Shown: positions 1,331 to 56,781 of the stretch, in pieces
Layout: each line of letters starts with the position of its first letter
How positions within the stretch are numbered: position 1 is the stretch's first letter
From: Acidobacteriota bacterium
GTDB lineage: Bacteria > Acidobacteriota > Vicinamibacteria > Vicinamibacterales > UBA2999
Direction: 5' to 3'
NCBI GenBank assembly: GCA_020851835.1
Contig: JADZBZ010000167.1
Location: 13,128 to 77,127, forward strand
Length of the DNA stretch: 64,000 nt
Program-made: the position numbers and the translations under genes
Notes under the pieces: generated by a model
What the model was told of the DNA's origin: nothing
Database searches by the model: none
Seen by the model: the letters and a program-made list of their open reading frames with translations, nothing else

Positions 1331-1359
1331 GTAATGCCCTGCCTCCGCGCGACACTCAT
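1331..1359 (+). promoter_or_regulatory. ECF-type promoter candidate, class 1: GTAATG-N16-CACTCAT
   Basis: Read directly: ccGTAATGccctgcctccgcgcgaCACTCATac. It lies about 70 nt upstream of the NmrA-like start. Confidence 0.55.
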
Positions 1360-1427
1360 ACAGGATGCGGGCCGGCCCGAAGGGTTGGCGCGGGCTTGAA
1401 ACGGAATGCCAGAGACAAGGGGATGTG

Positions 1428-2279
1428 ATGACAGACCAGCGGACCGTGCTAATCACCGGCGCCACGGGCAGGCAGGGAGGCGCGACCTTGCGGGCCCTGC
1501 GCGGTCAGGGTTTCGCCCTGCGGGCCATGACGCGTAAACCCGCCAGTGAAGCCGCCGAGGCGGTCGCGCATCTGGGCGCCGACGTCGTCTACGGCGACCT
1601 CGATGACTCGTCCTCGCTCGAGGCCGCCCTGGCCGGCGCCTGGGGCGTCTTCGCCGTGCAGAACACCTGGGAGGCCGGTGTCGAGAAGGAAGAGGAACAG
1701 GGCAAACGCCTGGCCGCCGTCGCGCGAAAGGCCGGCGTGCAGCACTTCGTGTACAGCTCGGTCGCCTCGGCACAGCGGCACACGGGCATTCCCCACTTCG
1801 AGAACAAGTGGAGAATCGAAGAAACCGTGCGTGGGTTGAAGTTTCCGTCGCACGTCATCATTCGGCCCGTCTTCTTCATGGAGAATCTGGTGACGCCGTG
1901 GTTCCTGCGCGATGACACGCTCTCGACGGCCATGGATCCCTCCACGGTGCTGCAGATGATTGCCGCCGCCGACATCGGCCGGTACGGCGCCCGCGCCTTT
2001 GTCGATGCCGGCTCGCTCAACCGCCGCGAGATCGACATCGCCGGAGACGCGGCGACGATGCCTCGAACAGCGGAGGTGCTCGGCCGGCATTTTCACCGGC
2101 GGATCGCGTTCGTGCGTGTGCCGATCGAACAGATTCGCGCCGGCAGCGATGATTTCGCCCTGATGCTGGAATGGTTCGACCGCGAGGGCTACAGCGTGGA
2201 TATCCCTGGACTCCAGCGGGAGTTTGGCATCGCACCGACGACGCTCGACGCGTGGGCCGACCAAGTCTCCCACGGGTAG
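1428..2279 (+). CDS. NmrA-family NAD(P)-binding protein
   Basis: VLITGATGRQGGA Rossmann motif and NmrA-like core (VQHFVYSS...PHFENKWRIEE). Start set at the internal ATG MTDQRT. Confidence 0.8.
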   Translation: MTDQRTVLITGATGRQGGATLRALRGQGFALRAMTRKPASEAAEAVAHLGADVVYGDLDDSSSLEAALAGAWGVFAVQNTWEAGVEKEEEQGKRLAAVARKAGVQHFVYSSVASAQRHTGIPHFENKWRIEETVRGLKFPSHVIIRPVFFMENLVTPWFLRDDTLSTAMDPSTVLQMIAAADIGRYGARAFVDAGSLNRREIDIAGDAATMPRTAEVLGRHFHRRIAFVRVPIEQIRAGSDDFALMLEWFDREGYSVDIPGLQREFGIAPTTLDAWADQVSHG

Positions 2280-2301
2280 TCGAGATGGGGTGGAATTTGG
2301 A

Positions 2302-4584
2302 TCACTTCGACTTGAGCGATACCGGCAGCTCGAGCGTCGCCGGTGCCAAGCAGTACTGATCATTGCACGCTTGGACGCGCAGCTTCAGTGTCGCGGTCGA
2401 GGCTGGGAGCCCAGGCACGAGCGCGCGCAGTTCTATCCGTCCGGAGTACACGGCGATCCCCTGCGGCGCGAACGGCGCCCTGAAGGTTTCCGCCGGCGGG
2501 TAGTCCACATGCAGCTTCGCCCCGTCCACGAACGTCAACTCGGTGGGAATCAGATTGCGGTCGGACGCCGGGTTGGCATTGATGTGGTAACCGGGATCGA
2601 TATCGATGACCACGCGCAACTCAGCACTCTGTTTGCCAGCAGCCCGCCGGGGCAGCAGGCTGGCCGTGGCAGGCACGTGGTCGGCGGAACCCGGCAACCC
2701 GGCCGACGGCTGCCCCGCTGCCGGCTCGGCCCGATTTAGCGCGGTCTGCAACGGCGGCTGACTGAGCCAGGCGAGCAGCGCGCCCCAGTCGTAGGGCCGT
2801 GCGGCAATCTGTCCGGACAGTGGCGCCAGGGCGCGCCGACCGGCGGTCGCGTACCGCACGTGACCGCCCTCGGCGCCGAGACCCAACAACAGCGCGACGG
2901 TCGCCGACTGACCGGCGGGCTGCACCGAGTCGCCGTCTGCCGGCGGCGCCACGAGCAGGTCGCTGGCGTCGGCGGTCGTTGCCAGCGATCCGTCGGGCCG
3001 GGCAAAGCGCGTGAGCATGGCGTCGGCGACCTGTTGTGCGCGCGTGCGCCACTCGGCCTCGCCGGTGATCTCGTGCAGGGCCAGGAACGCCTGTCCCAGC
3101 AGCGCGTAGTCATCGAGAAACCCGCCGCCTCCAGCGTGATCCTGAAAGAACTGATGCCTCAGCAGGCCGGTGCTCGCATCGAACGCCTGATTCCAGGCCC
3201 ACCTCGCAGCGTCGGTGGCGGTGCGCGTCAGCGCCGGATTGTCCAGAGCCTGGCCGGCCTGAAGGAACCCCAGGATGGCCAGCGCGTTATCGCCGATGAC
3301 GATCTTCTCGTCGCGCGCCGGCTGCGGCCGGCGGCTGCGCGCCGCCAACAGCTTGTCGCGCAGCGGTGCGAGCGTCTCGACCGCAGCAGCCAGGTGATCT
3401 TTGTCGGCGAGCACCTGCGCCTTGTCGCGATCCAGCCGCAGCACGCCGCCGGGCGACGGCTTCTGGCCACCGAAGCTCTCGGGCATCGGCGTCAACATGT
3501 AGAGGGCGAGGAATCGTCGGGTATCGGCCGCGCCCAAGACCGACTGAATTTGCTCTTTGGTCCAGACGTAGCTGACCCCTTCGACGCCGTCGATCTGTGA
3601 ATCCTGGGCGCTGTAGAAACCGCCGCCCTCCGCCTGCATCTCCGTGGTGAGGTAGTGCGCCGTGCGCCGCGCCACCAGCTTGAAGAATGGTCGCCCGGTG
3701 ATGGCGTAGGCCTGCGCGTACACTGCCAGCAGTTGGGCGTTGTCGTACAGCATCTTCTCGAAGTGCGGAATAGACCAGGTTGGCTCGGTGCTGTAGCGAT
3801 GAAAGCCGCCGGCGAGTTGGTCCATCACGCCGCCTTCGGCCATCGCCTGCAGCGTGGCGGTGACCATGTTCAAGACGTTGCGGTCGTGGGTCAGCCGGGC
3901 ATCGGACAGCAGCGCCGAGAGCACCGGCTCCTCCGGAAACATGGTCGAGCCGCCCCGGAACCCGCTGTTGGTCCCGTCGAACTGCGCCGCGGCCTGCTTG
4001 ACGGCCTCGGCGAGCCACGACTCGGGCGCCAGCGGGGCGCCGCCGGCCGCGCTCGGCCGGCTTTCTGCCTGCTGCAGGGCCTGATAGACCCGCGCACTCG
4101 TCTCGGTGACTTTCGCTCGCTCGCCGGTCCAGGCGTCGTGCAGAGACGTGAGAATGGACGGAAATCCAGTCCGGCCGCCCTGGTCTGTCGGCGGGAAGTA
4201 GCTGCCCGCGAAAAACGGCTTGAGGTCCGGCGTCAGAAACACGTTATTGGGCCAACCGCCGGCGCCGGTCATGATTTGGGTGGCCAGCATGTAGACGCCG
4301 TCCACGTCGGGCCGCTCCTCGCGGTCCACTTTGATGTTGACGAACCATCGGTTCATCAACGCGGCGATGTCCGGATTGGAATAGATCTCGCGCTCGGCGA
4401 CGTGGCACCAGTAGCAGGTGGAGTACCCCACCGACAGGAAGATCGGCTTGTTCTCGCGACGGGCTTTCTCGATCGCCTCGGGTCCCCACGGGTACCAGTC
4501 CACCGGATTATGGGCGTGCATCAGCAAGTACGGATCGTGGCTGTCAATCAACCGGTTGGTATACGTGGTGCCGTCGAACGTCAC
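2302..4584 (-). CDS. DUF255 thioredoxin-domain protein (YyaL/SSP411-like) with C-terminal DsbD-N-like domain
   Basis: N-terminus [54 protein letters not shown] is the family hallmark. The (alpha/alpha)6-like middle is present, and the C-terminal ~110 aa ends in [13 protein letters not shown] start at 4584. Confidence 0.85.
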
Positions 4585-4701
4585 GCCGGACGTCTTCGGC
4601 CCATGCGCCGCGCGACTCGTTCGAGTTCCGCCCGTTCGTCGTCTGGGAACTGACCCGGCTCAGGTGCTCGCAGTGTCGTCATCGTGAACGCTCCAGGAGA
4701 A

Positions 4702-5682
4702 TCAAATATGAGTGCCGGCGTGGCCGACAACATTACCCGGGCCCGTCGAAACCTGGTCGCGAATCGCGATCTCCCTCCTGCACCACTCCTCGAGACGTTC
4801 CGGGGTGCCGAGGTCCGACCAGCCCATCGAGGCGGGCCATGTGTACACGTCGAGGCCGCTGGCTGGCGCGATCACGTCTCGGGAGAAATCCGCTCTCACC
4901 ATTCCCGCGTATTCGCTCGCGACGACCTGGGAGCGTTCCTCCACCGGCGCGGAGAACGCTCCGGACAGGCGTTCGTGGAGATCCGGCAGGTGTTGCCGGT
5001 ACAGGCCGAGGAGGGCGTCGGCGCGCGCGACGAGCACCATCGTATTCCACACGGCGCCCAACGCGAGCAGACGCTCGGCTTCCGCGCTCTGCGGTTTCTC
5101 GACGAATGTCGCCACTGGTGCGACGCGACAGAGGGTCGGCCGACCTGGCGTGCCCTCGACCCGGGTAATCCAGCCGTATCCGGCGTCGGCCGACCACGCT
5201 TCTGCCCCGAAGAGGACGATGCGGCTCTCGCCTGACCGGATCCGTTCGACGGCGTCGCGTACGCCGAGCCGAAACTGTCGGACGTCCCCGACACCGTGAT
5301 CGGACGGCGTCAGCAGGACGCAGGCATGCGGCGCGTGTTCAACGACCGTGAGCAGTCCCAGCAGCACGCCGGCCGCGGTGCCGCGGTCAGCCGGTTGATA
5401 CGCGATGAGTCCCAATCCGGCGAGGTCGCGGTGCACGTGCAGGTACCGTCGGTGCGCTTCGTCCACCACCGTGACGGTCCGCGCTGACGGCGTCAGCGCC
5501 GCGACGCGGTCGAGCGTCTGCCCCAGAAGCGTCGGCCCGCTGCGCGCGCACCAGAATTGCTTCGGCACCCCGCCGGTCACGGCCGCCAGCCGTCGGCCCG
5601 CGCCGCCGGCGAGCACGACCGCCCAGAGGGGAGCGGCTGGGTCGCGCCATGAAGCCCGTCGCTCGCTACTCATTTTACTCAT
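4702..5682 (-). CDS. nucleotidyltransferase (mannose-1-phosphate guanylyltransferase-like)
   Basis: WAVVLAGGAGRRL...PKQF motif of sugar-phosphate nucleotidyltransferases. Start set at MSKMSSE; the longer ORF upstream overlaps the anti-sigma-like gene. Confidence 0.65.
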   Translation of the reverse strand: MSKMSSERRASWRDPAAPLWAVVLAGGAGRRLAAVTGGVPKQFWCARSGPTLLGQTLDRVAALTPSARTVTVVDEAHRRYLHVHRDLAGLGLIAYQPADRGTAAGVLLGLLTVVEHAPHACVLLTPSDHGVGDVRQFRLGVRDAVERIRSGESRIVLFGAEAWSADAGYGWITRVEGTPGRPTLCRVAPVATFVEKPQSAEAERLLALGAVWNTMVLVARADALLGLYRQHLPDLHERLSGAFSAPVEERSQVVASEYAGMVRADFSRDVIAPASGLDVYTWPASMGWSDLGTPERLEEWCRREIAIRDQVSTGPGNVVGHAGTHI

Positions 5683-5905
5683 TGGCGTCAGCAAACCGCG
5701 CCAGGATCTCGTCCCGCACTCGGTCCGGAAGGGGCTCGGGTTGCGGACCGTCCATCGTCCGCATGGCGGCGCGCAGGCGCTTGAGCGTGACGCGGCACTG
5801 CCGGCACATGCCGAGGTGATAGTGGAAGCGCAGCCGGTCGAGCCATGCGAGTTCGCCGTCCACATACGCCGTGAGGAGATCGGAGTTAGTGCCGCAGCGC
5901 GCCAT
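5675..5905 (-). CDS. small soluble zf-HC2 (ZAS, HxxxCxxC) anti-sigma-like protein, no adjacent sigma
   Basis: MARCGTNSDLLTAYVDGELAWLDRLRFHYHLGMCRQCR. It has the N-terminal Cys plus H-x3-C-x2-C, is 76 aa, and has no TM segment. Confidence 0.6.
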   Translation of the reverse strand: MARCGTNSDLLTAYVDGELAWLDRLRFHYHLGMCRQCRVTLKRLRAAMRTMDGPQPEPLPDRVRDEILARFADANE

Positions 5906-5960
5906 GGCGAACCTCCAGGCCCCGTGGAATCGGTTAGCATTCACGACGAGCGTCCGCCCG

Positions 5961-5989: not shown

Positions 5990-6002
5990 GGTCCATCGGG
6001 CG

Positions 6003-9630: not shown

Positions 9631-10233
9631 TCAGAATCGGCAGCCCGACGTTGAGCTGGTCTGGCCGCCCCCGATGCCGGACTTCTCCAGTCGGTCGTAG
9701 GCCTTGAGCCAGGCCCGGACCCGGACGTCGGTGTCCAGCACCACGGCCTTGAGATGGACGATCTGCGGCTCGGCTTCGGCCCCGGCGACGCGTTCGAGGC
9801 AGCGCCGCGAGTCGGACAGCCTGAGCAGGCTTTGCTGCGATTCTTTCGCGTTGCTCGTGGTCGTGAGCACGCTCTGATAGTCCGCCGCCAACTGCAGGAG
9901 CGCCCGTCGGTCCGCGGAGCCGTCTTCCGACCGCTCGAGGATCCACGACTCGACATCGTCGCGAACTCCGTTGTGATTCAGGTCCGCGCCGCGGATTTCG
10001 TCCCACAGTTGCTGCATCGGGTCCTGCTGAACCTCGGCTGGCGCCTCGCTGGCGAGTGGCCAGTAACTGGTTCGGGCCAGAGCCGCCGCCAGACCCCCCG
10101 CCAGGAGCAGCAGCCCTACGCCCACCTTCAACGTGCCGGATCTCGAACGCAGTATTCGACCGGTCCAGCCGCGCATCTGAACTCCAGGCGTCGGTCGCGT
10201 CCGGGCCAGTCGGGGCCCGGCGCCGCGAAGCAC
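9631..10233 (-). CDS. hypothetical membrane-anchored/secreted protein
   Basis: ORF with coding-like bias and an N-terminal hydrophobic segment VGVGLLLLAGGLAAAL. Start uncertain (10233 or 10176). Confidence 0.45.
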   Translation of the reverse strand: MLRGAGPRLARTRPTPGVQMRGWTGRILRSRSGTLKVGVGLLLLAGGLAAALARTSYWPLASEAPAEVQQDPMQQLWDEIRGADLNHNGVRDDVESWILERSEDGSADRRALLQLAADYQSVLTTTSNAKESQQSLLRLSDSRRCLERVAGAEAEPQIVHLKAVVLDTDVRVRAWLKAYDRLEKSGIGGGQTSSTSGCRF

Positions 10234-15064: not shown

Positions 15065-17850
<2,786 letters not shown>

Positions 17851-18144: not shown

Positions 18145-20223
18145 GTGGCGACGGAACCAGGCGACTTGGATTGGCTCGCGATCAATACCATCAGAACCCT
18201 GTCGATCGACGCGGTCCAGGCCGCCCGTTCCGGCCACCCCGGCACGCCCATGGCCATGGCGCCGGTGGCGTACACCCTCTGGCAGCACGTCCTGCGTTTC
18301 GATCCGGACGATCCGATCTGGCCCAATCGCGATCGGTTCGTGCTGTCGATCGGCCACGCATCGATGCTGCTGTATTCGCTGTTGCACCTGTGCGGCGTCA
18401 GAGCGGTCAACGCCGCGTACGAGCGGCTCGGCGAGCCGTCGGTCTCGCTCGACGACCTCACGCGATTCCGGCAGCTTGACGGCAAGTGTCCCGGCCACCC
18501 CGAATACCGATGGACCTCTGGGGTCGAGACGACGACCGGCCCGCTCGGCCAAGGCGTCGCCGCCAGCGTGGGGATGGCGATCGCGAGCCGGTGGATGGGG
18601 ACGTACTTCAACCGCCCGGGCTTCGACCTCTTCGACTACGACGTGTACGCGCTGGCCGGCGACGGATGCCTGATGGAGGGGATTGCCTCAGAGGCCGGCT
18701 CCCTGGCCGGCCACCTCGGACTCGACCGGCTGTGCTGGATCTACGACAACAACCACATCACGATTGAGGGGGCCACCAGCCTGGCCTTCTCCGAGGATGT
18801 CGCCGCGCGGTTCGTCGCTTACGGCTGGCAGGTGCTTCGTGTGCCCGACGCCAACGACCTGGGCCAGTTGCGCGCCGCCTTCGCGCGGTTTCGCACCGCC
18901 GGCGATCGGCCCACGCTGATCGTCGTGGACAGTCACATCGGGTACGGTGCGCCCCACAAGCAGGACACGAGCGCGGCCCACGGGGAGCCGCTGGGCGAGG
19001 AGGAAGTTCGGCTGGCCAAGCGTCAGTACGGCTGGCCGGAGGATGCGACGTTCCTCGTGCCCGACGGCGTCCGCGAGCACTTCGCGGCCGGCATCGGGTC
19101 GCGCGGCCGCGCGGCACGCGCCGCCTGGATGGATCGTTTCGAGGTCTACCGACGCGAGCATCCCGTCCTCGCTCGCGAGCTGTACGCGATGCAGCACCGC
19201 GACCTTCCCCAAGGGTGGGACGCCGACGTGCCGGCGTTTCCGGCCGATGCGAAGGGGCTCTCGGGCAGGGACGCGTCGAGCCAGGTGCTGAATGCCATCG
19301 CGCCTCGCGTGCCCTGGCTCGTCGGCGGCTCCGCCGACCTGGCCCCATCGACCAAGACTCGACTCACGTTCGAAGGCGCCGGCGACATCGGCGCGGGCCT
19401 CTGGGACGGCCGCAATCTCCACTTCGGCGTGCGCGAGCACGCGATGGGGGCGGTTCTCAACGGCCTGTCGCTCTCCAAGGTCCGGCCGTTCGGATCCGGG
19501 TTCCTGATCTTCAGCGACTACGGCCGGCCCGCTATCCGCCTGAGCGCGTTGATGGAGATTCCGGTCATCTACGTCTTCACGCACGACTCGATTGGCGTTG
19601 GCGAAGACGGGCCGACCCACCAGCCGGTCGAGCAACTGGCGTCGCTGCGCGCCATTCCCGGACTCGTCACGTTGCGGCCCGCCGACGCCAACGAGGTTGC
19701 CGAAGCCTGGCGGCTCATCATGCAGCTTCGGCACCGGCCAGTGGCGCTCGTGCTGTCTCGCCAGGACCTTCCGACCGTGGACCGGTCCCGATACGCGCCG
19801 GCGTCCGGCCTGGCTCGTGGAGGCTACGTGCTCGCCGACAGCGCGGACGGGGCGCCCGAGGTCGTGCTGCTCGCCACGGGCAGCGAAGTGTCCCTGTGCC
19901 TCGAGGCCCATGAACACCTCGCACGCGCCGGCGTCCGATCGCGGGTCGTCAGCCTGCCGTCGTGGGAGATCTTCGAGGAACAAAGCCGGGCGTACCGAGA
20001 CGACGTGCTGCCGCCAGCCGTGACGTCGCGGGTGGCGGTCGAGCAGGCGTCCACGTTCGGCTGGGAGCGGTACGTCGGCTCGCGCGGCGCGATTGTCGGG
20101 ATGCGGACGTTCGGGGCGTCCGCTCCGCTCAGGGCGCTCCAGAAGAAGTTCGGCTTCACGCCCGATCGGATCGTCGCGGTCGCGATGGAATTGCGCGCGC
20201 GTGCACGGGAGGCTCGGGCGTGA
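18145..20223 (+). CDS. tkt: transketolase
   Basis: [30 protein letters not shown]...[16 protein letters not shown], full-length three-domain match. GTG start. Confidence 0.95.
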
Positions 20224-20699
20224 GCGCGGGCGTCAGGCGCATCGCCGTGGGGGCCGACCACGCGGGCTATGGGTTGAAGACGCAGGTGGCCGAACACGTG
20301 CGCCGGCTGAGGCACGAAGTGCTCGATCTCGGTACCCGTTATACCCAGCCAGTCGACTACCCGGACTACGCGGAGGCCGTTGGGCAGGCGGTGCTGGACG
20401 GCCGGGCCGACCGCGCAATACTCGTGTGCGGCAGCGGAGTCGGCGCGTCGGTTGCCGCCAACAAGCTGCGCGGCATCCGGGCTGGCCTCTGTCACGACGT
20501 CTACTCAGCCCATCAGGGCGTGGAGCACGACAACATGAACGTGCTCGTCCTCGGCGCGCGCGTGATCGGGCCGGCGCTCGCCGAGGACCTGGTCGCGGCA
20601 TTCCTCGCCGCCACATTTTCCGGCGAAGCCCGGCACGTCCGGCGGTTGCACAAGGTGGCCGCGCTCGAAGCTCGGGAGCCGTCTCGGAAGGACACGTGA
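20220..20699 (+). CDS. rpiB: ribose-5-phosphate isomerase B
   Basis: [14 protein letters not shown]...[16 protein letters not shown] motifs. GTGA overlap with the tkt stop. Confidence 0.9.
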
Positions 20700-20703
20700 A
20701 CGC

Positions 20704-23568
20704 ATGAACCCCATCCTCAGCCTCGCCGGCTACGGCCAGTCGGTCTGGCTTGACTACATTCGACGCCACCTCATCACGTCCGGCGAGCTCCAGCGGCTCG
20801 TCGCCGAGGACGGCCTGGCCGGCGTGACCTCGAATCCCGCGATCTTCGAAAGGGCCATCGCGGGCAGCTCCGATTATGCCGAGGCGCTGGCGCGGCACGT
20901 GCGCGCCGGCGTCTCGACCGCCAAGGGCCTGTACGAGGCGCTGGCCATCGAGGACATCCAGATGGCCGCCGACGTCCTCCATCAAGTGTTCCTGAGAACG
21001 TCCGGTCGCGATGGGTTCGTTAGCCTCGAGGTCTCGCCAGAGCTCTCGCGGGCCACCCCGGGCACCCTCGACGAGGCGCGGCGCCTCTGGCACGCGGTGG
21101 GCCGCGAGAACGTCATGATCAAAGTGCCCGCCACACCCGAGGGCATCGTGGCAATCCAACCGCTCATCGCGGAGGCCATCAACGTCAATGTCACGCTCCT
21201 GTTCAGCGTCGCGGCCTATGAACGCGTCGCGGAGGCGTACCTCGCCGGCCTCGAGGCGCGCCTCGCTGCCGGCCTCGAGATTGGGCGCGTGGCCAGCGTC
21301 GCCAGCTTCTTCGTCAGCCGGATCGACACGGCGGTCGACGCGATCCTGACGGCGAAGGGCGCCAACTCGACCGGGACACTCGACCAGATCCGGCTCGCCG
21401 GCTTACTCGGGAAAACTGCGGTCGCCAACGCCAGGCAGGCGCGGCGGTCCTACCTGCGACGTCTCGATATGCCGCGATGGCGGGCGCTCGCCGAGCGCGG
21501 CGCGATGCCGCAGCGCCTGCTCTGGGCCAGCACCGGGACGAAGAACCCCGCGTACCCCGACACGAAATACGTCGAGGAGTTGATCGGCCGGGACACGGTC
21601 AACACGATCCCGCCGGCGACCTACGACGCGTTCCGCGCCCACGGCCGGCCGCGGGCGAGTCTCGACGAGGCGCCGGAGCAGGCCGACCAAGTCATCGATC
21701 AGCTCGAGGCCGCCGGCATCTCGCTTCAGGCGGTGGGCGAACAGTTGCTCGCGTCCGGTCTCGGGCAGTTCAGCGACGCGTTTCGAACGCTGCTCGCGGC
21801 CGTCGGCGATCGATGCGCGACGCTGAACGTGCCGGCCCGCCCGACGGTGACCTTGGCCGTCGGGACCGTTGAGCAGGCGGCCATCGACGCCGAGACGGCC
21901 CGCTGGACGAAGGCCGGATCGTCGAGCCGGCTCTGGGCGGGGGACGCATCTCTCTGGACGGGCCATGACGAGGCGAGCTGGCTCGGATGGCTCACCATCG
22001 TCGACCAACAGCACGCGCAGATTGACCATCTGGAGGCCATTGCGGACGATGTCCGGTCCGCGGGGTTTTCACATGCCTTGTTGCTCGGGATGGGCGGCTC
22101 CAGTCTGGCTCCCGAAGTGTTCAGACGGACGTTCGGCCGCCGGGTAGGCTTTCCGGACCTGCACATCCTCGACTCGACGGATCCCGCGCAGATCGCGCAC
22201 GTCGAGTCGCAAATCGATCTGGCGAACACGGTGGTTATCGTATCGAGCAAATCCGGCAGCACGCTCGAGCCGAATATCCTGCTGGACTATTTCTACGATC
22301 GCGTCAGCCGCGTTGCCGGCGCGGCCGAGGCCCCGCGACGGTTCATCGCGGTGACGGATCCGGGCTCGTTGCTCGCGCGAGCCGCGACCGAGCGCGGATT
22401 TCGGCACATCGCCTGCGGCGTGCCGAGCATCGGGGGACGCTACTCGGCGCTGTCCGACTTCGGGCTGGTGCCTGCCGCCGTGATGGGAATCGATCTGCGA
22501 CGGCTGCTGGAGCGCGCGGCGCGGATGGTGGTCACCTGCGCGGCCTGCGTGCCGCCGGGCGACAACCCGGGCGTGCGGCTGGGGATCGCGCTCGGCGCAC
22601 TCGCGCGCGGCGGCCGCGACAAGCTCACGCTGGTGGTGTCGCCCGCGATCGGCGACCTGGGCGCCTGGCTCGAACAACTGATCGCCGAATCGACCGGCAA
22701 GGCCGGCCGGGGCATCGTGCCGATCGACCTCGAGCCGCTGGGCGCGCCGCATCTCTATCGCGGCGACAGAACATTCGTCTACATTCGCCTCGAGGAAGCG
22801 CCTGACGCCGCCCAGGACGTCGCGGTGGTCGCCCTCGAGCAAGCCGGGCATGCGGTGTTGCGCGTGCGGGTCGACGACGCGTACGACCTGGGACAGGAAT
22901 TCTTTCGCTGGGAGATCGCCACAGCCGTCGCGGGCGCGATCCTCGGGATCAATCCCTTCGATCAACCTGATGTCGAGGCGAGCAAGGTCGCGACCCGGCG
23001 GCTCACCGACGAGTACGACGCGTCCGGATCGCTGCCGGCGGACCCGCCCTTTTGCGTCGAGGACAGGTTCGCTCTCCATGCGGATGCCGGTAACGCGGCC
23101 GCGCTCATGGCGGCGGCCGGAGGCCGCGCGCCCGCGGTCGAGTACCTGCGCGCCCACCTCGGGCGCGTGAGGGCGGGGGACTATGTCGCGTTGCTGGCCT
23201 ACGTGCCGATGAGCGATGCGCACCGCCGTGCGCTGCAGAACATCCGCCGCCTGGTCCGCGACCGACTCGGCGCGGCGACCTGTGTCGGGTTCGGCCCGAG
23301 GTTTCTGCATTCGACAGGGCAGGTCTACAAGGGCGGTCCCAATACCGGCGTCTTCATCCAGGTGACGTGTGACGACGCGGCCGATCTGCCCGTGCCCGGT
23401 CGGCGCTACACCTTCGGAATCGTGAAGGCGGCGCAGGCGCGCGGCGATCTTCAGGTGCTGGCGGAGCGCGGCCGGCGCGCGCTGCGCGTCCATCTTGGCC
23501 CGGATGTGGCCGCGGGGCTGGCCTCGCTCGGGCGGCTGATCGAACAGGCGCTCGGAGAACCGGCATGA
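20704..23568 (+). CDS. bifunctional transaldolase / glucose-6-phosphate isomerase
   Basis: N-terminal transaldolase (GQSVWLDYIRR...GVTSNPAIFE...IKVPAT) fused to a PGI-type C-terminal half (LLLGMGGSSLAPEV...SKSGSTLEP). 954 aa. Confidence 0.9.
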   Translation: MNPILSLAGYGQSVWLDYIRRHLITSGELQRLVAEDGLAGVTSNPAIFERAIAGSSDYAEALARHVRAGVSTAKGLYEALAIEDIQMAADVLHQVFLRTSGRDGFVSLEVSPELSRATPGTLDEARRLWHAVGRENVMIKVPATPEGIVAIQPLIAEAINVNVTLLFSVAAYERVAEAYLAGLEARLAAGLEIGRVASVASFFVSRIDTAVDAILTAKGANSTGTLDQIRLAGLLGKTAVANARQARRSYLRRLDMPRWRALAERGAMPQRLLWASTGTKNPAYPDTKYVEELIGRDTVNTIPPATYDAFRAHGRPRASLDEAPEQADQVIDQLEAAGISLQAVGEQLLASGLGQFSDAFRTLLAAVGDRCATLNVPARPTVTLAVGTVEQAAIDAETARWTKAGSSSRLWAGDASLWTGHDEASWLGWLTIVDQQHAQIDHLEAIADDVRSAGFSHALLLGMGGSSLAPEVFRRTFGRRVGFPDLHILDSTDPAQIAHVESQIDLANTVVIVSSKSGSTLEPNILLDYFYDRVSRVAGAAEAPRRFIAVTDPGSLLARAATERGFRHIACGVPSIGGRYSALSDFGLVPAAVMGIDLRRLLERAARMVVTCAACVPPGDNPGVRLGIALGALARGGRDKLTLVVSPAIGDLGAWLEQLIAESTGKAGRGIVPIDLEPLGAPHLYRGDRTFVYIRLEEAPDAAQDVAVVALEQAGHAVLRVRVDDAYDLGQEFFRWEIATAVAGAILGINPFDQPDVEASKVATRRLTDEYDASGSLPADPPFCVEDRFALHADAGNAAALMAAAGGRAPAVEYLRAHLGRVRAGDYVALLAYVPMSDAHRRALQNIRRLVRDRLGAATCVGFGPRFLHSTGQVYKGGPNTGVFIQVTCDDAADLPVPGRRYTFGIVKAAQARGDLQVLAERGRRALRVHLGPDVAAGLASLGRLIEQALGEPA

Positions 23569-24596: not shown

Positions 24597-24632
24597 CCGG
24601 AGGGGACACCTCGCCATGGGAGACACGAAACG

Positions 24633-25613
24633 ATGCAGCTAGGGATGATCGGACTCGGCCGGATGGGCGGCAACATGGTGCGCCGCCTGATGCAGGGCGG
24701 CCACGCACTCGTCGTGCACGACCTCAATGCGGGCGCCGTGACCGCCCTGGTGGGTGAGGGCGCGACGGGCGTTGCGTCGCTCGACGATTTCGTCCACGCC
24801 CTCGCGCGACCTCGAATCGCCTGGATCATGGTGCCCGCCGGCGAGGCGACCGACGCGATGGTCGGCGCGCTGGCCGATCGGTTCGAGGCTGACGACGTCA
24901 TCGTTGACGGCGGCAATTCCCACTACAAGGACGACGTGCGCCGGGCGGGACACCTCGCCCAGCGTGGCATCCACTACGTCGACGTCGGCACGAGCGGCGG
25001 GGTCTGGGGGCTCGCGCGCGGCTACTCGCTCATGATCGGCGGCTCGGCGGGCATCGTGGGGCGTCTGGACCCGATCTTCCGCACGCTGGCCCCGGGCGAT
25101 GATGGCGTGGCCGAGGTGGGCCTGAAGAGCGGCACCGCGCGGAACGGGTACCTGCACTGCGGGCCCGCCGGCGCCGGGCACTTCGTCAAGATGGTGCACA
25201 ACGGGATCGAGTATGGCCTCATGCAGGCCTACGCGGAGGGCCTGGGTCTGCTCCGCGGCGCCGCCGCCCTGCCGCTGCCAGGCGGGTACCGCTATGAGTT
25301 CGCGCTCGAGCAGATCGCCGAGGTGTGGCGGCACGGAAGCGTGATCGGATCCTGGCTGCTCGACCTGACCGCCGCGGCGCTCGCCGAGGATCCCGGTCTG
25401 TCCGGCTACACTGGCGACGTCCAGGATTCCGGAGAGGGGCGCTGGACCATCGAAGCCGCGCTGGAAGAAGGGGTACCGGTGGACGTCCTCGCCACGTCGC
25501 TGTTCGCGCGTTTCCGCTCCCGCCAGGACCACACGTTCGCCGACAAGGTACTGTCGGCGATGCGCTTCAAGTTCGGCGGCCACGTGGAGCCCGCCGGGAG
25601 CAAACGGCCATGA
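24633..25613 (+). CDS. gnd: 6-phosphogluconate dehydrogenase, decarboxylating (short form)
   Basis: [44 protein letters not shown]. Confidence 0.9.
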
Positions 25614-34393: not shown

Positions 34394-34999
34394 TCACGAC
34401 TCCAGCCGGGCGGCCAGTGCCGCCCGTAGCTTCGTACGGCCCCGGTGCAGAAGCACCCGCTGATTCGTCTCGCTGATGCCGAGGATATTACAGACCTCAT
34501 CGGCGTCGAGGTCTTCCAGGTCTCGAAGGGACACTACCGTGCGTTGGCTGGACGGGAGGCCGGACAGCGCCTCGTGCACCAGGTCCAGGAGTTCCGTTGA
34601 CAGGAGCAGGCGCTCGGGCGTGACCTTCCATTCTCGGGGCGGCACACGCCACCCGCCGGCCGGGTCGAACGCGTCTCCGTCGGGTGCCGGGTCCCCCTCG
34701 TCGGCCATCGGGACGTAGCGGGCCTCCTTGACGGCCCGGCTCTTCGCCCGGTTGGCCAGGACCCGGAACAGCCAGGTCTTGAACGTGGACCGTCCCTCGA
34801 ACTTCTCGATGCCGCGCAGAAAACCCATCCAGGTGTCCTGCACGACGTCCTCGGCGAGCGCGGCGTCGCGCACGTAATTGCGCGCCAGACGGAGCAGGGA
34901 GCGCTGGTACCGCGCCATGAGGGGGATGAAGGCGTCCTCGTCGCCCGCCAGGACCTGGGCCACGAGCGCTTCGTCTGATTCGATTAGGGACGCGGTCAT
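34394..34999 (-). CDS. ECF (group 4) sigma-70 factor 1
   Basis: Region 2 AEDVVQDTWMGFLRGIEKFEGRSTFKTWLFRVLANRA and region 4 LPSSQRTVVSLRDLEDLDADEVCNILGISETNQRVLLHRGR. The sigma2-sigma4 linker is long. Confidence 0.85.
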   Translation of the reverse strand: MTASLIESDEALVAQVLAGDEDAFIPLMARYQRSLLRLARNYVRDAALAEDVVQDTWMGFLRGIEKFEGRSTFKTWLFRVLANRAKSRAVKEARYVPMADEGDPAPDGDAFDPAGGWRVPPREWKVTPERLLLSTELLDLVHEALSGLPSSQRTVVSLRDLEDLDADEVCNILGISETNQRVLLHRGRTKLRAALAARLES

Positions 35000-35071
35000 G
35001 ACCCGGACTGCCGGTTGCCGCAAGGTCGGAAGAAGGTCGAATCGTCTGTGCGACGAACCGCTCGCATGCAG

Positions 35072-35179: not shown

Positions 35180-35797
35180 CTACTGGGGGAAATTGAGCAC
35201 GACGCCCCCGGTGATCCGGTGGCCGTACCGGTTCTCGATGCCGAAAAACCCCGGCGCGTCGTTCTTCGAGGCCACCGCGACGAAGCGATAGTCGGCGCGC
35301 ACCCCCCAGCGACGGTTCACGTCGAACTTGACACCGCCGCCCACATTGCCGGCAAAGAGCGTGGTGTTGTCCGTGACCCCCAGATCAGCCCGGTCGAAGA
35401 GCGTCAAGCCGCCCGCTCCGCCAGTGACGTAGGGGACGCCCCGGCGGTCCCGTCCGCCCGGATAGACGACCACGTTGCCGCCGTACGACGCCATGTGCGG
35501 CGGTTTGGCGTCGCGGCTGCCCGTCGGAAAGTCGAGCGCCTGATCGATCCCGATGTTGCCACCCACCTCACCCTCGACGCCGACGTAGCGATTGACGTTG
35601 AACGTGACGGACCCGACCAGGGTGTATGTGGCGAATGATGGCGCGCCGCTGTCACCTTGCGTGAAGTATGTCGTCCCACCGGGGAAAATACCGATCTCGA
35701 CCCGCGGCGTCTCAGTGGACTGAGCGTAGGCCGCGCCGCCAACGAGCATGAACGCGACGGCCAACGCCACCGCGATTGTTCCTCTCACCGTACTCAT
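35180..35797 (-). CDS. outer-membrane beta-barrel protein (OmpW/porin-like, 8-stranded size class)
   Basis: Signal peptide ...GGAAYA-QS, alternating amphipathic strands, and aromatic C-terminus (VVLNFPQ). Confidence 0.7.
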   Translation of the reverse strand: MSTVRGTIAVALAVAFMLVGGAAYAQSTETPRVEIGIFPGGTTYFTQGDSGAPSFATYTLVGSVTFNVNRYVGVEGEVGGNIGIDQALDFPTGSRDAKPPHMASYGGNVVVYPGGRDRRGVPYVTGGAGGLTLFDRADLGVTDNTTLFAGNVGGGVKFDVNRRWGVRADYRFVAVASKNDAPGFFGIENRYGHRITGGVVLNFPQ

Positions 35798-35847: not shown

Positions 35848-35876
35848 GTGAGTCCCATGAGGCTCAGGTTCGTTAC
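35848..35876 (-). promoter_or_regulatory. ECF-type promoter candidate, variant: GTAACG-N16-GACTCAC
   Basis: Minus-strand reading is ccGTAACGaacctgagcctcatggGACTCACct, about 50 nt upstream of the OMP start. Confidence 0.45.
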
Positions 35877-45505: not shown

Positions 45506-45534
45506 GTAATGTTTCGATCGACGCGGCCACTCAC
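45506..45534 (+). promoter_or_regulatory. ECF-type promoter candidate, class 1: GTAATG-N16-CACTCAC
   Basis: Read directly: ctGTAATGtttcgatcgacgcggcCACTCACac, about 70 nt upstream of the thioredoxin-family gene. Confidence 0.55.
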
Positions 45535-49305: not shown

Positions 49306-49877
49306 CGCGGCGCCCCGCTCCGACGCACCGTCAGCAGCGTCCCAATCGACGGCCGATCGGCCGGTCCCGATCCGCGGTGAAGCAGTCTGACGATGCCCGA
49401 CGGATCCACGAGAACGTCTCCGCCGAGTTGATAGATGTCGTTGGCCAGGGCCGACGCTCGAGGCGTGCGCCCTCGGAACAGCTCCTTGATATATGCCCAA
49501 CAGGTGCGCGGCCCCCAGACATTCCACCGCGTGCCGAGAAACATGCCGCAGGCGGCATACAGCGTCCGCGTCTCATCGATGACAACCGGCCAGTCGAAGC
49601 CCATTTCGCGCACCCACGCGTCCGCGACCGGGCCTCCCATGAACGACACCACGACAATCTGGACATCGAGGTCTTGAAAGATCCGCTCGGAATCTTTCAG
49701 ATCGAGGAGGTGTCGGCGGCACGGCAGGCACCCCAGGTGCCGATGGAACACGAGCAGCAGCCAATGTCCGCGATAATCCTCGAGGCGACGCACCTGGCTT
49801 TGGGCGTCCGGAAGCTCGAACGGCGGGGCCTGACCTCCAACGACGGCGTGTGGCGGCTCCGGCGTCACCGCCGCCAC
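49302..49877 (-). CDS. peroxiredoxin-like (PRX_like2 / AhpC-TSA family) protein
   Basis: APPFELPD...WLLLVFHRHLGCLPCRRH thioredoxin-fold CxxC motif. GTG start. Confidence 0.7.
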   Translation of the reverse strand: MAAVTPEPPHAVVGGQAPPFELPDAQSQVRRLEDYRGHWLLLVFHRHLGCLPCRRHLLDLKDSERIFQDLDVQIVVVSFMGGPVADAWVREMGFDWPVVIDETRTLYAACGMFLGTRWNVWGPRTCWAYIKELFRGRTPRASALANDIYQLGGDVLVDPSGIVRLLHRGSGPADRPSIGTLLTVRRSGAPR

Positions 49878-51403
49878 CGGAGCACCGCCCGAAGCACCGC
49901 ACGAAGGCGAGGCGTCAACCGCGAGCGATTCCAGGCATCCCCGAGTCGTTTCCAGGCCTCGGATTGTGTCGGATACGGATGGATCGTCAGCCCGATTGAG
50001 CCCATGCGAACGCCGGCTCGCATGGCGACGACCATCTCGCCGATCAGCTCGCCCGCATGGCCCGCGACCATCGTCGCGCCCAGGATCGCGCCCGTGCGCC
50101 GATCGACGTGCACCCGCGCGAATCCCTCGGCGTCGTCATCCAGGATGGCGCGGTCATTCTCGGACAGCTCCACCGTCAAGGTGCTCACCGCGTCGCCCCG
50201 TTGCTCCGCATCCCCCGCGGACAGGCCCACGTGCGCCACTTCGGGATCGGTGTACGTCGCCCACGGCACGACCAGCGCGCTGGCTCTCTTGCGGCCGAAG
50301 AACAGGGCATTCTGCAAGACGATGCGCGCCATGGCGTCGGCCGCATGCGTGAACTTGTGGCGCGAACAGATATCCCCAGCGGCGTACACCCGGCGATTGG
50401 TGGTGCGCAGAAAATCGTCCACGATGACGCCGGCCGCGTGCCAGGCAACGCCGCCGGCGGCCAGATCTAGATCCTCGACGTTCGGGCTCCGCCCGACCGC
50501 GACGAGAATCTCGTCGCCTGCGACCTCGCCCTGCGCCCCGCTGGCCTCATACACCAGCACGCGCGGCTGATCGCCGGCACGCCGCTCGGCACGCAGAATC
50601 GTCGCGTGCCGTATCAGCGTGACCCCTTCGCGAAGGAGCGTCCGCTCCACGATGGCGGACGCGTCGGCGTCGTCGCGAGGCAGCAGACCGCCCCCGCGGA
50701 GAATCAAGGTAACCGCGCTGCCAAGGCGACGGAACGTCTGAGCCAGTTCGCAGCCAATCGGACCGGCGCCGATCACGAGCAGGTGGCGGGGTCGTTCGGT
50801 CAGCGAGAAGATCGTCTCATTCGAGTAGAAGCCCGTCTCGGCCAACCCCGGAACGTCAGGGACGGTCGGCCGCGCGCCCGTGGCGATCACGGCCCGGCTG
50901 AATTTCAGCGTCTGGTCGCCCACGGCCACCGCATCACCCTGAATGAAGCGAGCGTCGCCGAGGTACACGTCGACACCGAGGCTGGCCAGTCGCCCGACGG
51001 AGTCGTTTTTCGCGATCCCGGCACGCAATCGTCGCATGCGGGCCATGACCGCCGCGAAATCGACCGGATCGGGAGCGGGCGCGGCACCGATCCCGAACCG
51101 GCCGGCACTCCGCACGCCCGCCGCCGCCCGCGCCGCGCTGATTAGCGCTTTCGACGGAACGCACCCGAAGTTGAGGCAGTCGCCGCCCGTGAGATGACGC
51201 TCGACGATGGCAACCTTCGCGCCAAGGGAGGCGGCGCCGACCGCCGAGACCAAGCCGGCCGTGCCGGCGCCCAGGACGACGAGGTTGTAGCGCCCGGTCG
51301 GTGTGGGATTGACCCAGTCCGCGGGGTGCGCGTATCCCACGAGCGTTCGGTTGTGCTCGTCATCGGGAGCCACGAGCGACTGAGAAGGCGATGGGGGCGT
51401 CAT
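49865..51403 (-). CDS. MerA-like FAD-dependent disulfide oxidoreductase (no metal-binding N-domain, no C-terminal CC)
   Basis: YNLVVLGAGTAGLVSA, redox GGDCLNFGCVPSK, and a dimerisation domain ending HPYPTQSEA. Confidence 0.8.
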   Translation of the reverse strand: MTPPSPSQSLVAPDDEHNRTLVGYAHPADWVNPTPTGRYNLVVLGAGTAGLVSAVGAASLGAKVAIVERHLTGGDCLNFGCVPSKALISAARAAAGVRSAGRFGIGAAPAPDPVDFAAVMARMRRLRAGIAKNDSVGRLASLGVDVYLGDARFIQGDAVAVGDQTLKFSRAVIATGARPTVPDVPGLAETGFYSNETIFSLTERPRHLLVIGAGPIGCELAQTFRRLGSAVTLILRGGGLLPRDDADASAIVERTLLREGVTLIRHATILRAERRAGDQPRVLVYEASGAQGEVAGDEILVAVGRSPNVEDLDLAAGGVAWHAAGVIVDDFLRTTNRRVYAAGDICSRHKFTHAADAMARIVLQNALFFGRKRASALVVPWATYTDPEVAHVGLSAGDAEQRGDAVSTLTVELSENDRAILDDDAEGFARVHVDRRTGAILGATMVAGHAGELIGEMVVAMRAGVRMGSIGLTIHPYPTQSEAWKRLGDAWNRSRLTPRLRAVLRAVLRWRR

Positions 51404-51418: not shown

Positions 51419-52261
51419 TCAGTCATCATCGTGGGATCGGCCCTCGATATGGGTCCCACCTGGGTAAATGACGTTACGGCTCGCTCCGTCGTTCAAGAAG
51501 CGCGCAATCGCTTCCGCTGTCGAGTCCGGATGTTCCAGTAGCATCAAGTGCCCACCCGGCAGCATCGCGTTGTGCACGTTGGGCTGTATGATCGCCCGCC
51601 GCGAGAGCTCGGCGTCGCCACATCCCGTCAGATTGAGAATCGGCACGTTCCCGATCGCCCTGACCAGGGCAGCGCCTGGAACGCCCAGGAGGACGCGGTC
51701 GAAGGTCTCCGCGATCGCGCGCCAGCGATGCGCCGTGTAGTCGTCGAAGACCTCGTCGGGGACGTACGCCGGCTTGGCGAAATAAAATGCCCGAATAACC
51801 TGCGCGCCCCTCAGGACGACACACGCCAGATGCGCCATGCGGCGATGGTTGAGCAGAACGGCGCCCCAACCGAAACGGTCGTGCAGCAGTTGGCGCCTGA
51901 TGTCATCACGGTTCTCGCCAAGAGGCGTGTTGATTAAGACGATCCACGACACACGATCTCTGTGGTGAACCGCCCACGCAAGGGCCAGCACGCCACCGAG
52001 CGAATGGCCGACAAGGGCGAGCGGCCCTGACGGGAAGCGCCGTTCGATCGTGCCGGTGATGAAGTTCAGCTGGTCGCCGACGTCGTAGCGGCTTTCGACG
52101 TCCTTGTTCTCGCCGAAGCCGGGCAGATCGAAGGAGAGTGTGTCCGCGCTCGTCGGCGGCCGCCGCAGGCGACCCTCGAGTCCGGCAAAGAGACGCTTTG
52201 AGCCCGTGAGCCCGTGGATCAGCACGATCTGTGACGGAGACATAGCTTGAGAGTTGTCCAT
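51419..52261 (-). CDS. alpha/beta hydrolase
   Basis: IVLIHGLTGS and nucleophile elbow LVGHSLGG. Confidence 0.75.
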   Translation of the reverse strand: MDNSQAMSPSQIVLIHGLTGSKRLFAGLEGRLRRPPTSADTLSFDLPGFGENKDVESRYDVGDQLNFITGTIERRFPSGPLALVGHSLGGVLALAWAVHHRDRVSWIVLINTPLGENRDDIRRQLLHDRFGWGAVLLNHRRMAHLACVVLRGAQVIRAFYFAKPAYVPDEVFDDYTAHRWRAIAETFDRVLLGVPGAALVRAIGNVPILNLTGCGDAELSRRAIIQPNVHNAMLPGGHLMLLEHPDSTAEAIARFLNDGASRNVIYPGGTHIEGRSHDDD

Positions 52262-53668: not shown

Positions 53669-53687
53669 ATCGACAGCCCGTGGCCGC

Positions 53688-54131: not shown

Positions 54132-54199
54132 GGTATCTCGCTCCGGTCAGGTGTCGCCCGCGCGCCGCCGTGCGGCGTCCCACGCGCTGGCTCTACAAC

Positions 54200-54228: not shown

Positions 54229-54239
54229 AGCGGATGCCG

Positions 54240-56341: not shown

Positions 56342-56375
56342 GGTGGCCACCCTTTCGACGGAGGAACGCCGCGTC

Positions 56376-56642
56376 TTACTTGGGGCTCGTGCTGCCGCCG
56401 ACGATCCGAGTGCAGTAGCCCGCCGGAACGTAAATCCAGGCTTTCGGATCGCTGTTCCTCTTCGATGTGCCGCCGCACGAGTTGTTGCCCTCCGAGGCGC
56501 AGTCGTTCTGGCCGGCCTTGGCGATGCCGTAACACTTCTCGGCCTTGAAGCTCGGCATCTCCGCCGGCTTTTGCGCCCACAGGATGCTCGGCGCGGCCGC
56601 GGCCGCAGCGAACGCCGACGCGATGACAAAACGCTTGTTCAT
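56376..56642 (-). CDS. bufA: DUF2282 bufferin-type RiPP precursor (BufA1-like)
   Basis: 88 aa. Sec signal MNKRFVIASAFAAAAAAPSILWA, then a core with four Cys: EKCYGIAKAGQNDCASEGNNSCGGTS...YVPAGYCTRI. Confidence 0.85.
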   Translation of the reverse strand: MNKRFVIASAFAAAAAAPSILWAQKPAEMPSFKAEKCYGIAKAGQNDCASEGNNSCGGTSKRNSDPKAWIYVPAGYCTRIVGGSTSPK

Positions 56643-56702
56643 ACGTGCCTCCCCATTTGGCCGGCGATCCGGGCTTATCCCGAAGAACTCGGCCACATCC
56701 GT

Positions 56703-56731
56703 GTGAGTGCAGGCCGCGGGGCGGACATTAC
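56703..56731 (-). promoter_or_regulatory. ECF-type promoter candidate, class 1: GTAATG-N16-CACTCAC
   Basis: Minus-strand reading is ctGTAATGtccgccccgcggcctgCACTCACac, about 60 nt upstream of bufA. Confidence 0.6.
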
Positions 56732-56752
56732 AGGCCCGGGAGGACCACGGCT

Positions 56753-56781
56753 GTAAGGTTTGCCGGTCAACCGGCACTCAC
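56753..56781 (+). promoter_or_regulatory. ECF-type promoter candidate, class 1: GTAAGG-N16-CACTCAC
   Basis: Read directly: ctGTAAGGtttgccggtcaaccggCACTCACta, about 85 nt upstream of trx-sigma2. It is back-to-back with the bufA promoter, 21 bp between the -35 elements. Confidence 0.6.

Follow-up and report, generated by a model that had tools for sequence, protein, structure and literature searches.

Vicinamibacteria and other Acidobacteriota are abundant in soil and genetically almost unstudied. A stretch of 64,000 nucleotides (nt) from one such bacterium (order Vicinamibacterales; contig JADZBZ010000167.1 of assembly GCA_020851835.1, positions 13,128 to 77,127; hereafter the window) raises the question of whether its mercury, arsenic, copper and thiol-redox operons answer to one regulator and, if so, to which. 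A first-pass annotation had noted that a bipartite motif recurs upstream of these operons, and had proposed that it is the promoter of one or both of the two extracytoplasmic function (ECF) sigma factors encoded in the window, here called sigma 1 and sigma 2. We found that the motif is real and that the observation is stronger than first noted. Very probably it is a promoter for one of the stress sigma factors that the window encodes, and the evidence mainly favours sigma 2 as the cognate sigma factor.

The pattern GTAA(B)N-N16-CAC(W)CA(Y), equivalently GTAAB-N17-CACWCAY, has 11 exact matches in the window (G+C content, 67.7%). Dinucleotide-preserving shuffles gave a mean of 0.01 matches, in keeping with the earlier estimate of well under one chance match, and none of 100 shuffles held more than one. 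The nine copies listed in the first-pass annotation are all present, each at the position and on the strand reported, but nine was an undercount: two further exact copies had been missed (4708–4736 and 57783–57811; Table 1), and relaxed and one-mismatch scans of the window added one credible site, a twelfth copy at 35848–35876. Beyond this site and a weak two-mismatch sequence at 51450–51477, those scans found nothing further. The spacing is as rigid as had been claimed, because a 16-nt spacer gave 11 matches and the nine other spacings scanned (12–15 and 17–21 nt) gave none. Moreover, GTAA-N18-CAC occurs exactly 11 times in the window, every occurrence being an exact motif copy, and 10 of the 14 CACTCA hexamers on the two window strands lie exactly 18 nt after a GTAA.

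The copies are also placed and oriented as promoters would be. Against a coding fraction of 92.5% for the window, 9 of the 11 exact copies are intergenic (P = 3.6e-9); the earlier remark that all copies are intergenic is right for the nine then listed and wrong for the two missed ones, both of which overlap coding sequence. All 12 copies are co-oriented with a gene start 50–226 nt downstream, so that the reported direction towards the downstream gene extends to the full set. Copies in the related loci are likewise directed at gene starts that lie tens of nt further on. Pfam and NCBIfam bore out the earlier gene labels, and independent gene calls on identical contigs match the gene map. An Rfam scan of the whole window returned no RNA family matches.

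The motif is specific to one family of sigma factors. Scanning species-representative genomes with an alignment of sigma 2 gave 80 loci, of which 61 carry sigma-2 orthologs (37–68% identity; Acidobacteriota and relatives) and 19 carry unrelated ECF sigma factors; a further 80 loci hold distant relatives of sigma 1. Strict matches were counted as GTAA-N18-CAC.CA, and expected counts were derived from base composition. The 61 ortholog loci (0.89 Mb) contain 97 strict matches against 3.5 expected. By contrast, there were none in the loci of the unrelated ECF sigma factors (0.27 Mb; 1.1 expected) or of the distant sigma-1 relatives (0.43 Mb; 1.4 expected), that is, none in the 99 control loci pooled (0.70 Mb). 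About 90% of the 61 ortholog loci carry at least one copy, and together with the empty controls and the recurrence of the same gene families downstream this ties the putative promoters to the ECF sigma genes of the window, as had been suggested. The autoregulation usual for ECF sigma genes is likewise visible in the arrangement: the copy at 56753–56781 precedes the thioredoxin–sigma 2 unit, and among 58 scorable orthologs 14 have a same-strand copy just upstream of the sigma gene, 35 have a copy inside it and 39 have a divergent copy within 400 nt.

Across 106 unique sites from the window and the related loci, which share the 16-nt geometry, the extended consensus is c-T-GTAA-(G/T)-(A/G)-(T/A)...CACTCA-C. 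Positions outside the search pattern are conserved too: 73% of sites have T at −1, and in 79% the base that follows CACTCA is C. The AA of the −35 box TGTAA(G/T/C) is invariant, and the next base is C, giving the AAC-type −35 expected of ECF promoters, in only about 13% of sites. A weight matrix built from the 89 sites of the other genomes recovered exactly the 12 window sites, with scores of 15–33; there was one additional weak match (10.8) inside sigma 1, and shuffled windows gave 0.2 matches scoring above 12.

Each of the two sigma factors is encoded next to a small anti-sigma factor, and relatives of both sigma factors carry the names Vicinamibacterales or Acidobacteriota. Against NF052368, an NCBIfam family of anti-sigma factors with a cutoff of 50 bits, anti-sigma 1 clears the threshold with 59.5 bits and anti-sigma 2 falls just short with 49.3 bits; the NCBIfam RsrA model matches anti-sigma 1 weakly (22 bits; cutoff 62.5). 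The window anti-sigmas gave zf-HC2 and antisigmaE matches only, with no NrsF (DUF1109) domain, and inspection by eye detected no transmembrane segment in either of them or in their orthologs. A Cys-His-Cys-Cys (CHCC) pattern, C...H-x3-C-x2-C, is kept in all but one of 59 anti-sigma sequences reconstructed from the related loci (76–101 amino acids (aa)), the exception (L033) being truncated at its N terminus through the start codon chosen in the reconstruction. The zinc ligands of RsrA are Cys11, His37, Cys41 and Cys44, and the N-terminal Cys makes this class respond to oxidation (PMC4960319). The spacing in the window proteins, C-x25-H-x3-C-x2-C, is identical to that of RsrA. The presence of this pattern in both anti-sigmas makes a thiol-reactive trigger plausible.

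On these grounds we consider it likely that the motif is the −35/−10 promoter of the sigma-2 family of ECF sigma factors, and that sigma 2, under the control of a zinc anti-sigma factor, has a regulon of about 12 promoters. In this model, sigma 2 would be kept inactive by the small, cytoplasmic, RsrA-like zinc anti-sigma encoded beside it. Thiol-reactive stress (oxidants, electrophiles and the soft metals or metalloids Hg, As(III) and Cu) would attack the zinc–thiolate site and the damaged anti-sigma would release sigma 2, whose complex with RNA polymerase would fire about 12 promoters in the 64-kb island, initiating some 6–8 nt after CACTCA. The predicted targets are two thioredoxin operons, the DUF255 thioredoxin gene and several disulfide reductases; the DUF6789–DUF547–BrxC string; the bufferin copper-peptide operon; the arsM–arsS operon; the leader of the mer operon; and an outer membrane protein (OMP) gene, a dehalogenase–reductase pair and an NmrA-like gene. 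The sigma 1/anti-sigma 1 pair, as a further target, would create a sigma cascade. The induced genes would restore thiol redox balance and handle Cu, As and possibly Hg, while the copy inside the sigma 2 gene would re-express the anti-sigma, restoring its excess as negative feedback. We infer the transcription starts, the binding sigma factor and the inducing signal; for the last, the invariant CHCC motif and the gene content point to thiol-reactive metal(loid) stress.

Many of the predicted targets recur downstream of the motif in other genomes. There it precedes sigma-2 orthologs in 18 cases, anti-sigma genes (through an internal copy) in 18, DUF6789 membrane proteins in 7, with weaker DUF6789/DUF1440-like relatives in distant lineages, bufA or bufB in 8 other loci, DUF547–disulfide reductase in 5, GT2–DUF547–reductase in 3 and DUF302 in 5. 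It also precedes a VTT-domain protein followed by a reductase, as well as an AhpC/DsbD_N protein, and it lies upstream of arsM in loci L034 and L162. The close island relatives L161–L165 have the same gene sets, with motif copies before trx–ccdA, arsM, BrxC and sigma 1, and the trx–ccdA copy at 45506–45534 has an orthologous site in L161. No conserved counterpart was found in related loci for the NmrA, dehalogenase, DUF255 and OMP sites. The occurrence of the motif before the same genes elsewhere supports regulon membership for most of the operons listed earlier, so that the proposal of a single regulon spanning Hg, As, Cu and other operons gains conserved sites for most of its members. The proposal is weakest for mer.

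Table 1. Motif copies in the window and the genes beside them. Scores are those of the weight matrix built from the sites of other genomes.
Feature	Start	End	Strand	Sequence	Context	Score
MerR-family regulator gene	770	1201			only MerR-family gene found in the window
Motif copy	1331	1359	+	GTAATG-N16-CACTCAT	68 nt before the likely NmrA-like start (ATG 1428)	20.1
Motif copy (missed earlier)	4708	4736	−		in the final 35 nt of an NTP-transferase gene (4702–5940); 123 nt upstream of a DUF255/Thioredox_DsbH + DsbD_N gene (2302–4584)	24.6
merTPFA	15065	17817	−		merT-merP-merF-merA
Motif copy	18044	18072	−	GTAACA-N16-CACTCAC	226 nt before the merT open reading frame (ORF)	24.3
Motif copy	31622	31650	+		83 nt before haloalkane dehalogenase gene (31734–32765)	16.7
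Pyridine-nucleotide disulfide oxidoreductase gene	32749	34104	+		next after the dehalogenase gene
Anti-sigma 1	34117	34389	−		90 aa, soluble, zf-HC2 domain; C4/H30/C34/C37
ECF sigma 1	34394	34999	−		201 aa; identical to P0121; independent gene calls agree
Motif copy	35072	35100	−	GTAAGC-N16-CACTCAC	72 nt before ECF sigma 1	21.6
One-mismatch copy	35848	35876	−	GTAACG-N16-GACTCAC	intergenic; 50 nt before OMP beta-barrel gene (35180–35797)	15.0
Motif copy	39177	39205	+		97 nt before the arsM-arsS operon	23.0
arsM-arsS-PHO4-VTT-DUF2064-GT2-DUF2911 operon	39303	45437	+		seven genes
Motif copy	45506	45534	+		67 nt before thioredoxin (ATG 45602)-ccdA-oxidoreductase operon	26.8
Motif copy	54200	54228	−	GTAATG-N16-CACACAC	68 nt before DUF6789-DUF547-BrxC-hydrolase-disulfide reductase string	19.2
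Motif copy	56703	56731	−		61 nt before bufA (56376–56641), then bufB, bufC, doxX	27.4
Motif copy	56753	56781	+	GTAAGG-N16-CACTCAC	87 nt before thioredoxin (56869)-sigma 2-anti-sigma 2 operon	33.0
ECF sigma 2	57311	57889	+		192 aa; probable cognate sigma; 99% identical to P0001
Motif copy (missed earlier)	57783	57811	+		within sigma 2 region-4 coding sequence; 74 nt before anti-sigma 2	32.3
Anti-sigma 2	57886	58125	+		79 aa, soluble, CHCC type (C4, H30, C34, C37)

Some of these targets have features of their own. The order of the seven-gene arsenic cluster, in which arsM and an arsenosugar-type radical-SAM gene (arsS) are followed by a PHO4 transporter, a VTT/DedA protein, DUF2064, GT2 and DUF2911, is repeated in L161, L162 and L166; its gene content suggests a pathway for organoarsenicals (of arsenosugar or arsenolipid type) that is controlled by a stress sigma factor rather than by ArsR. 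The DUF6789–DUF547–BrxC string possibly includes the radical-SAM gene as well. Within it, the two-mismatch sequence at 51450–51477 (−; GTAACG-N16-GACCCA) is found where the alpha/beta-hydrolase gene ends (3′), immediately before the disulfide reductase gene (49865–51403); it could have arisen by chance or could act as a weak internal promoter. In L002, L017 and L025, divergent motif copies are followed directly by genes for small secreted proteins of about 120–133 aa with conserved Cys residues (for example, ...DAACGLSHDKM...DCTLMCVKAGS...); the one representative searched (L002) had no Pfam match, and the proteins may form an uncharacterised periplasmic metal- or thiol-related family.

Several points weigh against the model. 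The mer operon has a putative MerR-type promoter of its own beside merT and the ECF-type copy is 226 nt away, which makes ECF control of mer the least secure link. The motif also stands upstream of sigma 1 and its close orthologs, which leaves room for shared or sigma-1 recognition. Six of the 61 ortholog loci have no copy near the sigma gene, and as a −10 element CACTCAC does not resemble those usually given for ECF promoters (CGTC, CGAA and GTT types). The related-genome loci are phylogenetically non-independent, so that P values calculated on them overstate the evidence. Finally, the inducing signal is read solely from a residue pattern and gene content.

The doubt about mer is the most substantial. 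The distance from the motif to merT is the longest of the 12, and a 64-codon ORF starts 5 nt past the motif. Direct reading of the leader revealed a MerR-type promoter candidate, TTGAAC-19 nt-TAACGT, at 17848–17818 (−), with the dyad CTGTAG-gaa-CTACAaG in its spacer; it adjoins the start codon of merT (17817), and there is another ATG (17811) at the place expected of a leaderless start. The operon might on this evidence be controlled essentially by MerR, the ECF copy driving just the 64-codon ORF or nothing relevant to mercury, a possibility that we take seriously while thinking it somewhat improbable. The window does encode a MerR-family regulator, as this alternative would have it, but the gene is the only one of its family found there and lies about 16 kb from the mer operon; no adjacent divergent merR was found, the gene upstream of the operon being that for transketolase. 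A scan of the leader, blind to 19-nt spacers, found no sigma-70 promoter, and it turned up nothing resembling a terminator on the way from the motif to merT. In a second genome (L003), moreover, the motif is again followed by a small metal-binding ORF (zf_CopZ) and then by merT. Given this repeated arrangement and the lack of a terminator-like site, dual control of mer, MerR-type plus ECF-type, is plausible.

The central part of the island holds a block of pentose-phosphate and gluconeogenesis genes (18145–27142, +) that diverges from the mer leader and encodes transketolase, a transaldolase–PGI fusion, FBPase, 6-phosphogluconate dehydrogenase and G6PD. No motif copy was found upstream of this block, which could supply NADPH to the many disulfide reductases.

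Which of the two sigma factors reads the motif is the next question. Sigma 1 and sigma 2 are paralogs (35% identity) with a common FEGRS..TWLF segment, the motif stands directly before close orthologs of sigma 1 in three genomes (L161, L162 and L164) as it does before sigma 1 in the window, and in L037 and L038 sigma-1-like genes lie within motif-driven bufferin operons. Sigma 1 might accordingly read the motif instead of sigma 2, or the two might do so interchangeably, with sigma 2 a mere member of the regulon. We think this unlikely. Distant sigma-1 relatives (46–57% identity) with enough upstream sequence lack an upstream motif in all 77 cases, no distinct bipartite motif emerged clearly upstream of these 77, and the full set of 80 such loci is devoid of strict matches. 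The motif instead follows sigma-2 orthologs down to 37–45% identity, in lineages without sigma 1 within 10 kb, and the predicted recognition helices differ (RTVTHVGV in sigma 2, ISETNQRV in sigma 1). Two of the three genomes in which the motif precedes a sigma-1 ortholog have a sigma-2-type gene within 10 kb. The motif thus tracks divergent sigma-2 orthologs and is missing upstream of these 77 genes. Most simply, sigma 2 would be the cognate sigma factor and sigma 1 a conserved target, which would form a cascade.

The same loci bear on where transcription might begin. In L161, L162 and L164 the start codon of the sigma-1 ortholog lies 5 nt after CACTCA(C/A) (locus positions 9967–10003), and several long ORFs in other loci begin 5–7 nt past the motif; in the window, an in-frame ATG of the NmrA-like gene (1365) lies 5 nt past the copy at 1331–1359. 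Start codons 5 nt after the motif suggest leaderless messenger RNAs that begin where the −10 element predicts. An ATG at 5–7 nt is found at only 13 of 108 sites, so these are a subset, probably leaderless, and we rejected a downstream ATG as a general feature of the motif. Upstream of sigma 1 in the window, the ATG at the equivalent position (35067) opens a 23-codon ORF (34999–35067, −) whose TGA stop overlaps the sigma 1 ATG (ATGA), an overlap that suggests translational coupling.

The copy inside sigma 2 raises a question of its own, because it coincides with the codons AGT-AAT-ATC ... GTC-ACT-CAC (S-N-I ... V-T-H) of the region-4 helix-turn-helix. The T-H residues and the N/K position are conserved across the sigma protein family, and at the homologous position of sigma 1 coding constraints have likewise produced a sequence that resembles the motif; the internal copy could thus be a by-product of conserved amino acids and no promoter at all. 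Codon usage makes this improbable. Of 17 orthologous genes with T-H, 15 spell the Thr as ACT, a codon that accounts for 5.8% of the other Thr codons in the same genes (P = 3e-17), and the GT of GTAA always comes from an xGT codon even though the residue encoded may be S, C, G or R. This pattern indicates that the internal copy is held by synonymous-site selection. Its distance to the anti-sigma start is constant across orthologs (72–76 nt). Furthermore, internal and proximal-upstream copies are nearly mutually exclusive (Fisher P = 4e-6): of the 58 scorable ortholog loci, 34 have only the internal copy, 13 only a copy just upstream, 1 has both and 10 have neither, and orthologs with a proximal upstream promoter have lost the internal copy and use common codons. 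In the window, and in L007, L009, L013 and L070, which share its trx–sigma arrangement, a thioredoxin gene is inserted upstream, and a distal upstream copy and the internal copy are both present. There is also a precedent, in that E. coli rpoE–rseA has a second sigma-E promoter upstream of rseA (PMC1312014).

Taken together, the codon bias, the mutual exclusivity and the constant distance argue for a functional internal promoter, and the copy at 57783–57811 is a probable promoter for the anti-sigma gene. A broader proposal, which we regard as evenly poised, is that the DNA encoding the sigma factor's own −35-reading helix is a promoter for that sigma factor, kept by selection at synonymous sites and driving the anti-sigma gene, and that it is the sole sigma-dependent input to the sigma/anti-sigma pair in most lineages (34 of 58 loci) and has repeatedly been exchanged for a conventional autoregulatory promoter upstream (13 of 58 loci).

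The motif-like sequence in sigma 1 (34463–34491, −), homologous in position to the internal copy of sigma 2, has a perfect CTGTAATAT −35 followed by ACGAATC. Across the sigma-1 family (including L083, L102 and L161–L164), the Cys codon is TGT (in one gene CGT, encoding Arg) in 7 of 7 genes in which the next codon is AAx, and TGC in 40 of the 44 remaining genes, which hints at DNA-level selection for GTAA within sigma 1 too.

Downstream of the thioredoxin–sigma 2–anti-sigma 2 unit lies an RND efflux system. A Cys-rich ORF of 141 aa begins 6 nt after the anti-sigma 2 stop codon and is followed by genes for an outer-membrane factor, a CusB-like adaptor with a YtkA domain and a CusA-like RND pump (58132–64000, +); this group may share a transcript with the sigma 2 operon or be expressed from the internal promoter. 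A CusB-like gene likewise lies downstream of the anti-sigma gene in L001.

A last alternative is that a conventional DNA-binding repressor or activator uses the motif as its operator, or that the motif is a dispersed repeat element; we judge this very improbable. A conserved regulator encoded outside the analysed loci could also co-occur with the island, and GTGAGTG, the reverse complement of CACTCAC, faintly resembles TGTAATG; against this, the motif is strictly directional, with a separate copy for each direction where genes diverge (the copies at 56703–56731 and 56753–56781 stand back to back), its architecture is −35/−10-like with a fixed spacer length and start codons 5 nt downstream in leaderless-looking cases, and it is tightly tied to one sigma family. 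The spacers and flanks of the window copies are mutually unrelated, with no conservation outside the two boxes, and we rejected an origin as a dispersed repeat or mobile element for this reason.

How does the predicted circuit compare with known systems? SigR–RsrA of Streptomyces coelicolor, with its mycobacterial counterpart SigH–RshA, is a known zinc-anti-sigma thiol regulon (PMC4960319). It shares with the window a small soluble CHCC zinc anti-sigma of identical spacing, adjacent sigma and anti-sigma genes, an autoregulatory promoter upstream of the sigma operon and a regulon rich in thioredoxins and disulfide reductases. The SigR promoter consensus is GGAAT-N18-GTT, whereas that of the window is TGTAAK-N16-CACTCAC; the window system belongs to Acidobacteriota, its predicted regulon adds bufferin, arsM–arsS, the mer leader and DUF6789/DUF547 genes, and most sigma-2 family members have a probable sigma-dependent promoter within the sigma gene. 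Sigma 2 is only remotely SigH-like (E = 1e-5) and resembles CnrH or SigW more; when sigma 2 and anti-sigma 2 were searched against PDB sequences, the matches were confined to remote ECF and RsiW proteins, with no informative close relative, and NCBIfam matches to numbered ECF groups were all sub-threshold. As judged from these comparisons, sigma 2 lies outside the SigR/SigH (ECF12) clade. Sigma factor, promoter and phylum thus all differ, and the window system would be SigR–RsrA-like in its working while standing outside that clade.

Caulobacter SigF, of the SigF–NrsF heavy-metal regulon, is an ECF sigma factor encoded next to, and controlling, a bufferin (DUF2282–MbnB–DUF2063–DoxX) operon (PMC11626156), and its promoter is GTAACC-N16-CGAA (PMC3511200). 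The likeness to the window lies in the bufferin operon adjoining the sigma gene (in position only, as the bufA copy is divergent from the sigma 2 operon), in the GTAA −35 core with a 16-nt spacer, and in anti-sigma cysteines, which are implicated in metal sensing in SigF–NrsF. The window differs in its −10 element (CACTCAC rather than CGAA), in its much larger predicted regulon and in its anti-sigmas, which are of a 79–90-aa cytoplasmic zinc type, unlike the six-transmembrane NrsF. In E. coli rpoE–rseABC, one sigma-E promoter precedes the whole operon and another precedes the anti-sigma gene (PMC1312014), a layout that the motif copies of the trx–sigma 2–anti-sigma 2 operon repeat; unlike there, the probable internal promoter is the sole copy acting on the pair in 34 of 58 sigma-2 orthologs, and the anti-sigma is of a cytoplasmic redox type, not a proteolysed membrane protein.

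Literature searches on the motif, on sigma regulons of Acidobacteria and Vicinamibacter and on ECF control of mer, which were incomplete in coverage, found no description of this system. The earlier remark that such a regulon had not been described holds to that extent for the motif and the regulon, but ECF control of bufferins (PMC11626156) and zinc-anti-sigma thiol regulons (PMC4960319) were already known. An ECF sigma/zinc-anti-sigma regulon is thus of a familiar type; the promoter consensus is undescribed in the literature searched, and the internal-promoter architecture is conserved.

The analysis yields a consensus for the promoters of one acidobacterial stress circuit, together with a map of its predicted regulon that can be put to the test, and suggests a role in thiol or metal stress for DUF6789, DUF547, DUF302, DUF3179 and DUF2911. 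The sigma/anti-sigma/promoter triple is compact and could serve synthetic biology. Copper, arsenic and mercury functions are classically under separate metal sensors of the MerR, ArsR and CsoR types. If the model is true, cytoplasmic and periplasmic thiol repair, bufferins, arsenic methylation, an arsenosugar-type radical-SAM pathway and possibly mercury detoxification would here be under one thiol-sensing switch. The conserved internal promoter would give a clean natural example in which to follow the evolution of feedback architecture: if it acts as proposed, loci with only the internal copy would exert pure negative feedback on the sigma/anti-sigma pair, and the evolution of protein sequence and promoter would be coupled in a manner undescribed for ECF sigma factors.

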